Below, one piece after another: positions 8,104 through 32,556 of a stretch of DNA of 64,000 nt (the stretch's first letter is position 1; each line of letters starts with the position of its first letter). Source of the DNA: Nitrospirota bacterium (GTDB taxonomy: Bacteria; Nitrospirota; UBA9217). The stretch is from NCBI GenBank assembly GCA_963754875.1, contig CAVWHO010000014.1, forward strand, positions 64,001-128,000, written 5' to 3'. Made by a program: the position numbers and the translations under genes. The notes beneath the pieces were generated by a model, which did no database searches, was not told where the DNA came from, and saw nothing but the letters and a program-made list of their open reading frames with translations.

Positions 8104-8178
8104 TAGAAAATGCTTCTCCCTCGACGTGAATAGACGGAACGAGACATGCACGAAAAGAATAATAAGAAAGAAAAGGAA

Positions 8179-8926
8179 ATGCAGACTATCGACGAACTGC
8201 GGGCACGGCTGGATCCGTCCGGCCTCCCGCGGCATATTGCAATCATCATGGACGGAAACGGCAGGTGGGCTCTGCGCAGGGGCCTTCCAAGGGTCGCGGG
8301 CCACAAACGGGGCGCCGAGACGGTGCGCCGCATTACTGAAGTTTGCCGTGGGTTGGGGGTTCCGGTCCTTACCCTGTACGCTTTTTCCGACGAAAACTGG
8401 GGCAGGCCCAAACAGGAAATAGGTTTTCTCATGGACATGCTCGGGGTATTCCTCAAGGCCGAGATCGCGACCATGAAAGCAAACGGCATCAAGTTCCGCA
8501 CCATCGGGAGAATTGAACGGCTCCCGTCATCGGCTGCAATCGTGGGTCGAAAAAGCCATGAACGAGACGGCAGCTAACACCGGTCTGGTCCTGAACCTTG
8601 CGCTGTCCTACGGAGGCCGCGGCGAAATTCTGGAAGCGATCAAACGGAGCATGGCCGCGGGTGGAACGGCTGGACCGTTGACCGAAGAGGTTTTTGCCTC
8701 GTACCTCGATACCGCCGGATTGCCGGACCCGGACCTGATCATCCGTACCAGCGGCGAAAAGAGGATCAGCAATTTCCTGCTCTGGCAGGCCGCTTATGCC
8801 GAGCTGTATTTTACCGACACGCTCTGGCCGGACTTCGAGGAACGAAGCCTGCTTGAAGCGCTCATCGACTACCAGGGCCGGCAACGCAGGTTCGGGCTTA
8901 CCCAGGACCAGCTCGTACAGAAATAG
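8179..8926 (+). CDS. uppS: Undecaprenyl diphosphate synthase, frameshift near 8535
   Basis: HIAIIMDGNGRWA and YAFSDENWGRP, then LALSYGGR and DLIIRTSGEKRISNFLLWQ in the second frame. Confidence 0.93.
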
Positions 8927-12564: not shown

Positions 12565-13645
12565 GTGGACAATCCTATCACCCGGAAAAAAACCAGACAA
12601 ATATCCCTCGGCTCTGTCAAGATCGGCGGCAACGCGCCTGTTGCGGTCCAGTCCATGTGCAATACCGACACCCGCGATCAGCAGGCGACGCTTGCCCAGA
12701 TCAAACAGCTCGAGCAGGCAGGGTGCGAGCTTGTCCGCCTCGCGGTCCCCGATGAAGCTGCAGCGAAGGCCATCAATAAAATCAAGAAAGGGACTGACCT
12801 TCCGCTGATCGCCGACATTCATTTCGACTACCGTTTGGCGCTCGAAGCAGTGAAACAGGGGATCGATGGACTCAGGATCAACCCCGGAAATATCGGCGGC
12901 AAGGATAAGGTCTGCCGAAGTGGTCCGGGCTTGCAGGGACAGGGGCATACCGGTCCGCATCGGCGTGAACGCGGGCTCGCTCGAAAAGCATCTCCTTGAA
13001 AAGTACGGGCACCCCACGCCCGAGGCCATTGTGGAGAGCGCCTTCGGCCACATCCGTATCCTCGAAGAGCTGAATTTTAAGGACATCAAAGTCTCGCTCA
13101 AGGCCTCCGACGTGATGACGACCGTCTCAGCCTATCGTTTGTTTTCGCAAAAGTCCGATTACCCGCTTCACATCGGCATCTCCGAAGCAGGCACGCTCTT
13201 CTCCGGAACGATCAAGTCGAGCGTGGGCCTCGGCATTCTCCTTGCCGAAGGCATCGGCGATACGATGCGCGTGTCGCTGACTGCGGACCCGGTCGAGGAA
13301 GTGCGGGTCGCTTACGAAATACTGAAATCACTGAAAATCAGGCAACGGGGCGTGAACATCATTTCCTGTCCCACTTGCGGCAGGACCGAGATCGATATCA
13401 TCGGTCTTGCCCGGGAAGTGGAGAAGCGCCTCGCTCATATCAAAGAGCCGATCACGGTCGCTGTTATGGGCTGCGTCGTGAACGGGCCCGGCGAGGCGCG
13501 CGAGGCGGACGTGGGCATCGCGGGCGGCAAAGGCGTTGGTCTCTTGTTCAAGCACGGTGACATCCTCAAAAAGTTCGATGAGAAGGAATTGGCAGATGTG
13601 CTGGTCCATGAAGTAGAAAAAATAATTGATGAGAAGAAGTCATGA
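12565..13645 (+). CDS. ispG: HMBPP synthase (GcpE), frameshift near 12912
   Basis: VQSMCNT, ADIHFDY and RINPGNIG, then [16 protein letters not shown] and [10 protein letters not shown]. Confidence 0.94.
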
Positions 13646-15419: not shown

Positions 15420-15533
15420 ATGAATCCCGCGACTTGCAATCCCCCGGCTCCCGCCGGGGGTTCGCGCCGTAGGCCGCCGGGAGGTCGCGTTATTCAGGGG
15501 AGCCTCCGGCTCCTGCCGGAGGGGGCTCCACTA
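15420..15533. repeat. Multi-hairpin REP/MITE-like element, long copy
   Basis: Nested palindromes cccccggc-tccc-gccggggg and ggagcctccggc-tcct-gccggagggggctcc; both ends recur at 52668-52718. Confidence 0.75.
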
Positions 15534-15616
15534 GTTCAGGGCCTGCGTTTTGGGAACCTGGACCTTTTTTCTTCACATCGTTACACTTTCCGTTGACGGG
15601 AGGCTCCTGATTGGAA

Positions 15617-15850
15617 ATGGAAATAGAGCAGATCAAGACGATCGTCGCCGAGATGAGCCGGCAATACCGGGCAAAGGACGGTCAAGTGACTTTTGCAGGA
15701 GTCGATGGAGGCACGGTCAAGATCGCTCCTGCAGGTTTCTGCTGGCGTTGACATATTACACGAATGGCCCTGGTCCGGGGCTTGCAAAGCAAACTTAAAG
15801 CGGAATTTCCCTGGGTTGAACAGGTCATTGTAATCAAGCCGCAGCAGTGA
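15617..15850 (+). CDS. Nfu/NifU-C-domain protein, putative selenoprotein (CxxU, UGA at 15749-15751)
   Basis: MEIEQIKTIVAEMSRQYRAKDGQVTFAGVDGGTVKIAPAGFCWR-UGA-HITRMALVRGLQSKLKAEFPWVEQVIVIKPQQ; Nfu-like similarity on both sides of the UGA; GGGAGG RBS at 15598; alternative TTG start at 15611. Confidence 0.75.
15767..15781 (+). promoter_or_regulatory. Candidate bacterial SECIS hairpin
   Basis: gccctg-gtc-cggggc stem-loop with G at the apex about 21 nt after the in-frame UGA. Confidence 0.5.
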
Positions 15851-15870: not shown

Positions 15871-15899
15871 TTGAATTCCGCCGCTGATGAGCCTATAAT
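15871..15899 (+). promoter_or_regulatory. Sigma-70-type promoter
   Basis: TTGAAT-17 nt-TATAAT upstream of the 15935 ORF. Confidence 0.55.
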
Positions 15900-15934: not shown

Positions 15935-16162
15935 GTGGAAGAAATCGTAAAGCTTGAGCTGACGCCGCAGCAGATGGCGGAAATAAAAAAACAGATCGGT
16001 TTTGAGCTTCGCGAAATTTACCTGACGAAGCGGTCGTTGAACAAACTGCGTGTTTTCCGGCTTCGTCTCAGCGAGGAGCAACAACTGGTCCTTGAGGAGA
16101 AGCTCGGCCAAAAAGTACGGGAACTTACCGTAACGCGCTCGGTCGCAACAAGGATCTTGTGA
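15935..16162 (+). CDS. Small hypothetical protein with an internal duplication
   Basis: GGAGG RBS, GTG start, own promoter, two similar halves. Confidence 0.7.
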   Translation: MEEIVKLELTPQQMAEIKKQIGFELREIYLTKRSLNKLRVFRLRLSEEQQLVLEEKLGQKVRELTVTRSVATRIL

Positions 16163-16279: not shown

Positions 16280-16468
16280 TTGAAAAAAATTTTTGCACTC
16301 ATATTGGCCCTCGTATTCGTTGTGGCCGTTGCTCTGGTCGGCTGCGAGAAGAAACAGCAGCCTGCACCGCCGCCTGCTCAGCCTGCCGTAACTCAGCCGC
16401 CTGCTCCCCCAGCGCCGGCCCCGGCCCCGGCACCGGCTCCTGAACCGGCGAAGCCGGCAAAAAAGTAG
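16280..16468 (+). CDS. Small Pro/Ala-rich lipoprotein
   Basis: AAGGAGGTG RBS, signal peptide with lipobox LVGC, PAPAPAP tail. Confidence 0.8.
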   Translation: MKKIFALILALVFVVAVALVGCEKKQQPAPPPAQPAVTQPPAPPAPAPAPAPAPEPAKPAKK

Positions 16469-18550: not shown

Positions 18551-19840
18551 ATGCTAAATATGACTTCGATCATCGCTTTTATATCCGTTTTCTGGGCGCC
18601 TGCTACTGGCTGTGGGCGCAAGCATCCTCGTTGCCGCTTTTTTTGCCGCAGCCGAAACAGCCATCGTGTATTCGAACAAGGGGCATCTTCACGAACTGGC
18701 CGAAGCAGGAAACAAGCAGGCGAAGGTTGCCCTCATACTGGTGCAGGAGCGCGATCGCCTGCATTCCGCGCTGCTCTTGGCGGAAAATTTTCTGATCGTT
18801 CTTGCCGCAGTCATCACGATGGTCATTATCGGCAAGCCTGTTCACGGAGGTCCTTCTTGCTGCGGCATTCACGGTGCTTATCGTGACCGTTCTCGTCGTG
18901 TTCTTTGCAAAGCTGGCCCCGAAGGGAATCGCCTGCAGAAACCCCGACCGGATTCGCTCTGTCCGTCGCTTCTCCTCTGCACATGATCATGAACGTCCTG
19001 ACGCCTGTCTCCCGGCTGCTGACGGGCACGGCCGACCTGGTCGTCGGCCCGGGGCCGGAAGGCGCGTCCTGCTCCACGGTGGTCACCGAGGAAGACATCA
19101 AGGCCATGATCAACCTGGGTGAAGAGCGCGGCTCGCTGAAAGAGGAAGAAAAGGAATTGCTCCACAAAGTGTTCGAATTCGGCGATACGCTGGCATCGGA
19201 AGCAATGAGGCCCCGGACCGAGATCGTCAGCGTGCCCTCGAATGCGGCGCTACGGGAAGTGTTCGCCCTCGTATCGGAGTTCGGATATTCACGCTATCCC
19301 GTTATCGAAGATACGGTGGACACGGTCATCGGCATCCTGTATATCAAGGACATTCTCGTTGCCATGGCGTCGGGAGATGTGAAGCGCGAGGCGAGCATCC
19401 AGCAGTTCATCAGGCCGGCTTACTTTATTCCTGAAAACAAGCGGGTGAGCGAGCTCCTGTCCGAAATGCAGCGGGAGCGGTTCCAACTCGCCATTGTCAT
19501 CGATGAATACGGCGGCACGGCGGGACTGGTGACCCTCGAAGACCTGATCGAGGAGATCGTCGGCAGCATTCACGACGAATTGGAATCCGAGGAAAAGGAC
19601 GTCCAGATCGTTGACGAGAAGAACTTCGTGGTCTCGGGCCAGTCCCCGCTCGACGAGGTGAACGAGCTGCTCGACTCGAACCTCCAGTCAACGGACTTCA
19701 ATACGCTCGGCGGCTTTGTGTTCGGACTCTTTGGCAGGATGCCGAAAGTCGGCGAACAATTACGGTACCGGCACCTGAAGCTGGAGGTCCTGGAGCTCGA
19801 CGGGAGAAAGATCAGTAAGGTGAAGATAACGAAACTTTAG
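18551..19840 (+). CDS. Hemolysin/CorC-like CNNM-CBS protein, about 3 frameshifts in the first 400 nt
   Basis: FFAAAETA, LAPKGIA, MRPRTEI, YSRYPV, VIDEYGGTAGLVTLEDLIEEIVG and a CorC C-terminal domain. Confidence 0.85.
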
Positions 19841-23404: not shown

Positions 23405-25318
23405 ATGCGCATCCTACTCGCCCTTTTCTTCATCCTGCTTTTTTCGACCTCGGCCGTGGCAGGCGGCATCCAAGCTGGGGGGCAATCGGACCGCCAGGCC
23501 CCCGATAAATCACAGATCCTTCTGAGACAGGCTCGCGCAGTCTTCGGATTGCTGCCGCAGCGGATGCCCGGCAGCGACCGAGATACGCCGGACCTGATCG
23601 CGCTTGGGAAAATGCTGTACTATGAGCCCAACCTTTCTATCAACAGGACTCAGAGCTGTAACTCTTGCCACCCGTTAGATGGAAAGCTGGCGGGCGCGGA
23701 CAACCTCGTCCATTCACCCGGCGCCCTCGGGACTATAGGCACACGGAACGCGCCTACGACGCTCAATGCCGGGTTCCAGATCTCGCAGTTCTGGGACGGC
23801 CGCGCTGACGATCTCGCGGAGCAGTCGAAGGGGCCTATCCTGAATGTGATGGAAATGGGCATGCCCCATATCGATGTCTGTCTCAAGCGGATGAAACAGT
23901 CCGATCGGATCCGGGAGGCCTTCCATGCGGCGTTTCCGGACCAGACAGAGTCTGTCACATATGACAACCTTGCCTTGTCCATCGCGGCATTCGAGCGCAC
24001 ACTCGTTTCTCGGGGACGTTTTGACCAGTTCCTTGAGGGCGATTCGGGCGCTCTCAGTGAGCGTGAAAAGGAAGGGCTCGGTATTTTCATAAACAAGGGG
24101 TGCATCCGCTGCCACAACGGACCGCTCCTCGGCGGCATGCTGTACCAGCGGGTGGGCATCTACCATGAGTACAAGAATACCTCAGATGTGGGTCGCTTTA
24201 GCGTCACGGGGAACGAGAACGACCGTTTTGTCTTCAAAGTGCCGTCGCTTCGTAATGTCACACTCACCGCGCCGTACTTCCACGACGGGGGGGTCGCGAC
24301 GCTAGCAGAAGCAATAGATGACATGGCCTGGTTCGAACTGGACGAGAAGCTTTCAAGCGCGGAGATCGACTTGATCCTCCGGTTTTTCACCTCGCTTGCC
24401 GACCTCGATCGCACCACCGCTCCCATGAAAAAGTCGAAGGAGACGGTGAGCTGGAACCCTCCGAAGATGGAAACAATCCCTGCGGGTGCGCGGGGTGATC
24501 TAATCAGGTACGGGCATCAGCTCGTGAGCAGGTCGCAGGCGCTTCTTGGCAGCCGGGCAAAATCGCCGGCCATGGTCTATCTGCATAGCACGCTTGCGTG
24601 CGTCAACTGCCACCAGGAGGACGGCACCAAGATATACGGCATTCCCTGGATGGGAGTGACCCTTCGTTACCCGCAGTATAGCTCTCGGTCGAACTTGGAG
24701 GTGACACTTGAGGACCGCGTCAATGACTGCATGGAACGGAGCATGAACGGCCGTGCCCTTCCCAAGGATAGCCATGAGATGCGGGCCATTATCGCATACC
24801 TATCCTGGCTCGGCACTGACCTGCCTGGGGAACTTGCGGGCCTGCTCAAGGTAAGCTTGTCCGTTCCGGACCGCCGTGCGAATCTGGATAAAGGTGCAGG
24901 GATTTACCGCGAATTCTGCCAGGCCTGTCATGGAGCGGATGGGTCAGGCTACCAGGCCCGATCAGCTTTGGACGAGGGAATCTTCGTCACGCCGCCGATT
25001 GCCGGCCCAAACAGCTTCAATACCGGAGCAGGCATGCACCGGCTTCTTCTGGCCGCGGCTTTTGTGAGGGGCAATATGCCGCTCGGCACGCCTTGGGACC
25101 GGCCTGTGCTGACCGATGATGAGGCATACGACGTCGCGGCGTATATCAATTCCCTGGACCGACCCGATATGCCAGGCACAGATAAGGACTGGCTTGATTT
25201 ATCTAAAAAACCCGTAGATTGCCCGTATCCGCCCTATGCCGACGGCTTCAGCCTCGAGCAGCATAGATACGGGCCTTTTAAACAGATAAGCGAAGCAAAG
25301 AAAAAGAAAGGCAAATGA
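23405..25318 (+). CDS. Tetraheme fusion: diheme cytochrome c peroxidase domain plus TsdA-like thiosulfate dehydrogenase domain
   Basis: Signal peptide; CNSCH, RNAPT, QFWDGRA, CIRCH and FKVPSLRNV..TAPYFHDG; then CVNCH, RVNDCMERSMNG, CQACH, SFNTGAGM and NMPLG. Confidence 0.88.
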   Translation: MRILLALFFILLFSTSAVAGGIQAGGQSDRQAPDKSQILLRQARAVFGLLPQRMPGSDRDTPDLIALGKMLYYEPNLSINRTQSCNSCHPLDGKLAGADNLVHSPGALGTIGTRNAPTTLNAGFQISQFWDGRADDLAEQSKGPILNVMEMGMPHIDVCLKRMKQSDRIREAFHAAFPDQTESVTYDNLALSIAAFERTLVSRGRFDQFLEGDSGALSEREKEGLGIFINKGCIRCHNGPLLGGMLYQRVGIYHEYKNTSDVGRFSVTGNENDRFVFKVPSLRNVTLTAPYFHDGGVATLAEAIDDMAWFELDEKLSSAEIDLILRFFTSLADLDRTTAPMKKSKETVSWNPPKMETIPAGARGDLIRYGHQLVSRSQALLGSRAKSPAMVYLHSTLACVNCHQEDGTKIYGIPWMGVTLRYPQYSSRSNLEVTLEDRVNDCMERSMNGRALPKDSHEMRAIIAYLSWLGTDLPGELAGLLKVSLSVPDRRANLDKGAGIYREFCQACHGADGSGYQARSALDEGIFVTPPIAGPNSFNTGAGMHRLLLAAAFVRGNMPLGTPWDRPVLTDDEAYDVAAYINSLDRPDMPGTDKDWLDLSKKPVDCPYPPYADGFSLEQHRYGPFKQISEAKKKKGK

Positions 25319-32124: not shown

Positions 32125-32556
32125 ATGATGGAACAGTACAGCTCAAAAGTGATGGACCATTTTGCTCATCCCCATAACGTGGGAGAGATCGAGAATGCCG
32201 ACGGCGTCGGCACGGTGGGGAACCCTGTGTGCGGCGACGTGATGCGCCTGTATATAAAGGTGGAAGGCAACGTCATCACCGATGCTAAATTCAAGACCTT
32301 CGGGTGCGGTGCGGCAATTGCCACGAGCAGCATGGTGACCGACCTGGTGAAGGGCAAGAGCATCGACGAGGCGCTTAAAATTTCGAACGCTGCAGTTGCC
32401 GAGGCGCTCGGCGGACTGCCGAAGGTGAAGATGCACTGCTCGGTGCTGGCAGAAGAGGCGCTCAAGTCCGCGCTCGATGATTACTACAAGAAAAAAGGGA
32501 TTCCTTCGCCGGTGAAGATCTCCGCTGAATCAGGACACGAACACGAGATGGAGTAG
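32125..32556 (+). CDS. nifU: Fe-S cluster scaffold (IscU / NifU N-terminal domain only)
   Basis: GNPVCGD, FKTFGCGAAIA and KMHCSVLA. Confidence 0.92.
   Translation: MMEQYSSKVMDHFAHPHNVGEIENADGVGTVGNPVCGDVMRLYIKVEGNVITDAKFKTFGCGAAIATSSMVTDLVKGKSIDEALKISNAAVAEALGGLPKVKMHCSVLAEEALKSALDDYYKKKGIPSPVKISAESGHEHEME

Follow-up and report, generated by a model that had tools for sequence, protein, structure and literature searches.

The locus at 15611–15850 of the window, i.e., the whole 64,000-nucleotide stretch of Nitrospirota DNA analysed here, raises the question of whether an in-frame TGA ends a small Nfu-like gene or is decoded as selenocysteine (Sec) in a single-domain Nfu-type protein (Sec-Nfu). 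The plus-strand frame spanning 15617–15850 was found to contain a single in-frame TGA (15749–15751) at the position of the second cysteine, after which 32 sense codons run to another TGA (15848–15850), and reads as the 77-codon frame given in the original prediction. The second TGA is the true stop codon, near which the orthologues terminate with TGA, TAA, or TAG. The first Cys codon of the CxxU motif (15740–15742, plus strand) is invariant among the aligned orthologues, the inferred Sec codon at 15749–15751 is conserved across them, and the motif reads G-F-C-W-R-U-H. The start codon is more likely to be TTG at 15611, giving 79 residues, than ATG at 15617, giving 77, because a likely ribosome-binding site predicted from the sequence (GGGAGG, 15598–15603, plus strand) lies 7 nt before the TTG, many orthologues begin at the equivalent codon, and the ATG reads AGG in contigs from three of four DNA runs. 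The differences listed between the contigs of the four DNA runs and the window leave 15749–15751 unaffected. Elsewhere in the window, genes that look like uppS (8146–8926), ispG (12565–13645), and a CBS-domain membrane protein gene (18612–19840) are each split over two frames, as is mnmL of the same genome (G000:C10:108203–109082), which suggests indel errors in the assembly.

The conservation of the codon was followed in relatives. A search of genome contigs with the single protein gave five loci, only three of them true relatives. A profile of 23 orthologues was run against 401 genomes, with matches accepted at E 1e-11 or better. This profile search, which at the genome level covered Nitrospirota only, found the gene in 35 of the 401 genomes, distributed in three families: 24 carriers in the family of the source genome (23 of 63 plus the source genome itself), and 3 of 5 and 8 of 14 genomes in two others, with no match in the remaining Nitrospirota families. 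The original prediction had proposed looking for TGA or Cys at this codon in homologues, and TGA was found in 34 of the 34 carrier genomes that were read, as well as at 64 of the 67 loci from metagenomes. The 35th carrier has its copy at a contig edge and was flagged with one TGA, and the other three metagenome loci comprise one that ends before the codon at a contig end and two spurious short matches. All the true orthologues read, down to ~45% identity, have TGA and never TAA, TAG, or Cys. A Cys orthologue was found neither in the genomes and metagenome loci nor in the protein databases searched, where the searches for Cys or fused forms were word-based or limited to representatives. The only full-length database match (P0002) is a single sequence lacking both ligands, and divergent or Cys members looked for beside mnmL in 20 other genomes did not reach 8 bits. 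A fused form was also considered and rejected, its single match being an over-extended call that terminates at the UGA.

In the protein database, 119 of the best 120 matches (of 210) span at most 57% of the query. Seven of these short matches were opened, and all stop at the residue before the UGA and carry, where named, mostly the name "hypothetical protein." Such calls would agree with a UGA that truly terminates translation, or that arose in assembly, in a pseudogene or in a gene for a 46-residue peptide, as would the apparent frameshifts in housekeeping genes of this assembly and the genuine decayed copies present in relatives. Two of the 35 genome copies are indeed damaged: one (G011) has decayed, its hairpin being mutated and parts of it deleted, and the other (G043) is frameshifted upstream. 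Against this reading, the codon is always TGA in true orthologues read down to ~45% identity, the 3′ half is under purifying selection, and the decayed copies show scattered damage that includes the hairpin, unlike the window copy. We consider such an artefact or pseudogene to be very improbable and, on these sequence comparisons, effectively excluded.

The purifying selection was measured in 22 orthologues from the family of the source genome, in which pN/pS was 0.38 in the part before the UGA and 0.29 in the part after the hairpin. The similarity past the TGA claimed in the original prediction is borne out by the latter value, and also by sequence matches in the PDB, six out of six of which are Nfu domains whose second Cys aligns with the TGA. 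Judged from substitution patterns, the 3′ half past the TGA is coding and under purifying selection.

The hairpin expected at 15767–15781 was found within 1 nt of that position, at 15766–15782 on the plus strand and inside the coding sequence. It has a stem of seven pairs and a G-led loop, GUC (15773–15775), located 21 nt past the UGA, with a folding energy of −10.2 kcal/mol. In single-sequence folding its stability is not beyond chance (z of 0.22 to −0.75), and the folding energy of one sequence is therefore no evidence for the hairpin. The evidence comes from comparison: the stem is 88.8% paired in 28 sequences with 17 double-sided changes at four pairs, covariation as high was seen in 0 of 500 shuffles (the shuffle ignores kinship), structures slid along the alignment score lower, RNAalifold recovers the same stem unprompted, and synonymous divergence is 0.26 within the stem versus 0.62–0.71 elsewhere. 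The conservation of the hairpin is thus beyond chance, and by these measures the hairpin is selected. The bacterial SECIS (bSECIS) model, as summarised in sections of a review (PMC13188914), has a loop of 3–9 nt with G in the first two places, a distance of 16–37 nt from the UGA, a stem of at least four pairs, and an energy of at most −7.5 kcal/mol, and the Sec-Nfu hairpin falls within all of these limits. When bSECIS scoring was applied, as the original prediction had also suggested, 67 of 75 distinct orthologue sequences satisfied a simplified form of the model, versus 101 of 500 ordinary TGA stops. A narrower hairpin model separated the same 67 of 75 orthologues from 14 of 500 stops; it was set after the data had been seen, and we therefore rely on the broad model.

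The element also resembles, in loop spacing and G-led loop, those of other genes in the source genome, where selD, two fdhA genes, and mvhD contain in-frame TGAs with G-led loops at ~18–23 nt. Separately, one formate dehydrogenase alpha gene on the minus strand (G000:C1:77099–79096, locus L167) contains an in-frame TAG ~46 codons before its Sec TGA, which may be a nonsense change, an assembly error, or a readthrough codon. The genome was expected to encode the decoding machinery, and selA, selB, tRNA-Sec (selC), and selD were all present above cut-off, with selA and selB adjoining. A match to selA or selB was obtained in 33 of 35 carriers (selA tested in 24 of the family of the source genome, selB in the 11 others). 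The two exceptions, with completeness of 89% and 96%, each encode a selD that contains an in-frame TGA, and one has tRNA-Sec, so that an assembly gap over selAB is likely in both. The UGA and a recoding-type hairpin kept across Nitrospirota make a selenium-bearing Nfu relative very likely, and it is almost certain, as judged from the sequence evidence, that the UGA would be read as Sec by the standard SelB/SECIS route. The core of the original prediction, an Nfu-domain selenoprotein with CxxU and a bacterial SECIS, is strongly supported by the conservation, the hairpin, and the machinery, and none of the three outcomes that it named as refuting was encountered in the contigs, genomes, and homologues compared.

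Assignment to the Nfu fold was examined with profiles and a predicted structure. The Pfam model NifU (PF01106, cut-off 27) matched with 38.7 bits over all 67 positions when Cys was placed for Sec and with 30.9 bits when the stop was read through. With Cys substituted for Sec, AlphaFold gave a model (pLDDT 87) arranged as helix-strand-strand-helix-strand, like Nfu, and the top four Foldseek matches are Nfu domains, the best being CnfU (2z51) and the C-domain of human NFU1 (2m5o, TM 0.84). Both ligand positions are retained, and so is an invariant Gly located two residues ahead of the first Cys; the canonical CxxC with two cysteines is absent, the second position being TGA in all orthologues read. 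The canonical signatures RP..L..DGG and GACxxCP are likewise not present in Sec-Nfu. When the consensus of 16 Sec sequences was compared with that of 29 Cys sequences, G-x-C and one Gly were found to be kept, and R, P, D, A, and the Pro that follows the motif to be lost. The conserved set of Sec-Nfu is P-x-G-(F/Y)-C-(W/Y)-R-U-H-x-T-R-x-x-L-V with a late W-V, replacing RP..L..D and CPMS, with UHxT standing in place of CPMS and aromatic residues flanking the first Cys; part of this set reflects RNA constraint, since the L-V codons form the hairpin. Sec-Nfu shares ~26% identity with the Cys Nfu found in the same phylum. When a tree was built from 16 Sec sequences together with 29 Cys Nfu domains from the phylum and 6 representatives from databases, the Sec group formed one side of a long branch (100/99), on 75 columns that cannot place its origin.

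The relationship with the ordinary Nfu of the cell was addressed next to that of the neighbouring genes. The source genome encodes a canonical CGSC Nfu on another contig (C13), upstream of an rnf-like operon, and a stop-free Nfu domain was also present in 19 of 19 other carriers tested (20 of 20 with the source genome). The suggestion in the original prediction that Sec-Nfu complements the nifU gene at 32125 did not hold: this gene, located behind an Rrf2 regulator and nifS, matches the 121-position model TIGR03419 with 206 bits, above cut-off, and as an ordinary stand-alone scaffold leaves nothing to complement. Judged from gene content, Sec-Nfu is a dispensable extra paralogue. In the family of the source genome it lies between proS and a conserved 75-aa ORF, and when the locus was examined in 18 family genomes without an intact copy, six had significant DNA remnants (E below 0.05), which indicates that the gene is ancestral in this family and has been lost repeatedly. 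Reversion to Cys was not seen among the losses examined. Loss driven by a lost Sec machinery was rejected, as all six genomes with clear remnants retain selA.

Several other features accompany the gene in the window. Between proS and Sec-Nfu there is a 113-bp GC-rich palindromic repeat (15421–15533) that folds strongly (z −2.8), has ~8 further near-full copies in the genome, and is skipped cleanly by related-strain contigs; from these properties it looks like a MITE/REP-type insertion. The downstream 75-aa ORF (15935–16162, plus strand) belongs to no Pfam or NCBIfam family, has an internal two-fold repeat and its own sigma70-like promoter (15871–15899), and is 73–97% identical in 60 of 63 genomes of the source family and was not found in the other families searched. 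A partnership between this ORF and Sec-Nfu was rejected, because the ORF occurs in 60 of 63 family genomes versus 23 of 63 for Sec-Nfu, was not found in the two other carrier families, and has its own TTGAAT-17-TATAAT promoter. Further downstream, a small Pro/Ala-rich protein with a lipoprotein-like signal (16280–16468, plus strand) is syntenic in relatives and has no NCBIfam match, and a 637-aa protein with several CxxCH haem motifs (23405–25318, plus strand) is apparently, from its sequence, a fusion of a cytochrome c peroxidase-like domain with additional c-type cytochrome domains.

In the two other carrier families, 10 of 11 carriers have the gene downstream of mnmL (TIGR01212) at a distance of no more than ~900 bp, and an opposite-strand nitroreductase gene stands between the two in at least three genomes. 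The mnmL gene is present in 188 of 401 genomes, mostly without Sec-Nfu, and the link may be one inherited arrangement, as both families fall on a single branch. Part of a preprint (bioRxiv 10.64898/2026.05.18.725915) describes MnmL/YhcC as a radical SAM enzyme with a [4Fe-4S] cluster that modifies tRNA in anaerobic growth, and gene context points weakly to MnmL as the only candidate client. Co-occurrence was counted over 64 genomes of the source family, with the copy frameshifted upstream (G043) counted as a carrier and the decayed one (G011) not. In this set dsrA (57 of 64) and an A-type carrier (58 of 64) were uninformative, and nifH showed no clear link (14 of 23 intact carriers versus 19 of 41 others). 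In 13 family genomes a second match to PF01521 (A-type carrier/HesB-like) with an internal TGA was noticed (e.g., G024:C4:5784–6041); it occurs in 9 of 23 Sec-Nfu carriers versus 4 of 41 others, largely in one genus, and is absent from the source genome.

The function of the product can be approached from what is reported for Nfu. Passages of PMC5014551, PMC10388178, and PMC5890173 describe the CxxC of Nfu as holding a [4Fe-4S] cluster across a dimer, which in PMC5014551 is bound at the homodimer interface with the Gly before the motif mattering in Nfu1, and in ISCA1-NFU1 both Cys are described as required ligands (PMC10388178). Sec is already listed for some Fe-S proteins, HesB-like and MvhD among them (Table 1 of PMC13188914). 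By analogy, there is about an even chance that Sec-Nfu works beside the ordinary Cys Nfu as an accessory carrier of [4Fe-4S] clusters, dispensable and with Sec as a ligand. SelB would bind the hairpin 21 nt downstream of the UGA and deliver Sec-tRNA to yield the 79-residue CxxU protein; a [4Fe-4S] cluster might then be held between two such molecules, or between one of them and a partner carrier, with Cys and Sec as its ligands, before being handed to a few particular clients. The altered surface near the motif points to clients other than those of Cys Nfu, and the output of the carrier would depend on selenium supply.

The carrier function may also have been lost, given the ~26% identity to Cys Nfu, the absence of RP..L..D, the change of CPMS to UHxT, and the aromatic residues beside the first Cys. 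An Nfu-fold selenoprotein that carries no cluster could cycle between selenol/thiol and selenenylsulfide and reduce persulfides or disulfides, e.g., on cysteine desulfurase or oxidised Fe-S proteins. Redox CxxC sites sit at the start of a helix, and the motif is at the start of a long helix (residues 42–62) in the model; the loss of canonical Nfu surface residues agrees with this possibility, as does the presence, in 20 of 20 carriers tested, of a Cys Nfu that could do the carrying. In the portion of the review on uncharacterised CxxU proteins, most are expected to be redox proteins (PMC13188914), and a persulfide reductase role has been proposed for Nfu1 (passage in PMC5014551, citing Liu et al, 2009), although this is a minority view even for Cys Nfu. 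Nevertheless, the Gly that precedes the motif in cluster-binding Nfu is invariant in Sec-Nfu, and no thioredoxin-system or peroxidase gene was a neighbour at the loci examined, and we consider the redox function, which is the chief alternative to the carrier, possible and on balance unlikely.

That no Cys version was found among the orthologues and that the gene is lost outright, without reverting to Cys, make selenium itself seem to be the point. A protein made only with selenium could traffic or sense it, by binding selenide or Fe-Se species or by tuning Cys Nfu through pairing. The gene is, however, never beside sel genes at the loci examined, the source genome gave no match to selenouridine synthase, and the loss occurs in genomes that retain selA, which leaves selenium handling improbable. 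In the most specific form of the carrier reading, offered tentatively and at somewhat less than even confidence, Sec-Nfu would be the selenium-dependent second Nfu of sulfate-reducing-type Nitrospirota, a true Fe-S carrier with a Sec ligand from an uncatalogued family, whose task would be to load or repair the [4Fe-4S] clusters of clients, MnmL for example.

Why Sec is used instead of Cys is a long-standing question that has been studied mostly in redox enzymes. The occurrence of a CxxU Nfu and a CxxC Nfu in one cell makes this question directly testable for Fe-S trafficking and, if the carrier function is true, offers a natural Cys/Sec pair for testing the effect of selenium on cluster binding and release. 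The gene also exemplifies a class truncated by annotation, 119 of the best 120 database matches being the pre-UGA part only. Its reach is bounded by a standard recoding mechanism, confinement in our searches to three Nitrospirota families, dispensability, and a predicted function.

Sec-Nfu is a real family, very probably of selenoproteins, with the Nfu fold; neither the 119-family catalogue nor NCBIfam includes it, and it would add a family to a fold without a listed selenoprotein. Table 1 of the May 2026 review (PMC13188914), which lists 119 selenoprotein families and includes those of Haft and Tolstoy 2025, has no Nfu/NifU entry, and NCBIfam 20.0 has no model for Sec-Nfu, giving a weak partial match to TIGR02000 only. 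No such family came up when the main texts of PMC9312934 and BSepDB (PMC13326102), and deep-Sep (PMC12013277) with its four supplements, were searched by word, and none of the papers listed in a search of non-subscription literature dealt with it. Among the known systems, the HesB-like selenoprotein (TIGR01911), related to A-type carriers, is likewise a selenoprotein that derives from a family of Fe-S carriers (Table 1 of PMC13188914), but it belongs to another fold family, has the motif UxGP versus CxxU in Sec-Nfu, and was not matched by Sec-Nfu in NCBIfam or Pfam. The CxxU redox selenoproteins (SelW-like, AhpD-like, DUF1858, and the CC/Se motif), as listed in the same review, have the CxxU motif and small size in common with Sec-Nfu; they give no family match to it, and Sec-Nfu has the Nfu fold. 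The closest likeness is to the single-domain Nfu/NifU C-terminal proteins (PF01106; 2z51, 2m5o, and 1xhj), which have the same length, predicted fold, position of the two-ligand motif, and preceding Gly. Sec-Nfu differs from them in having UGA at the second Cys, a SECIS-type hairpin, and a long branch of its own (100/99), in the replacement of RP..L..D and CPMS, and in always being a second copy that is often lost.
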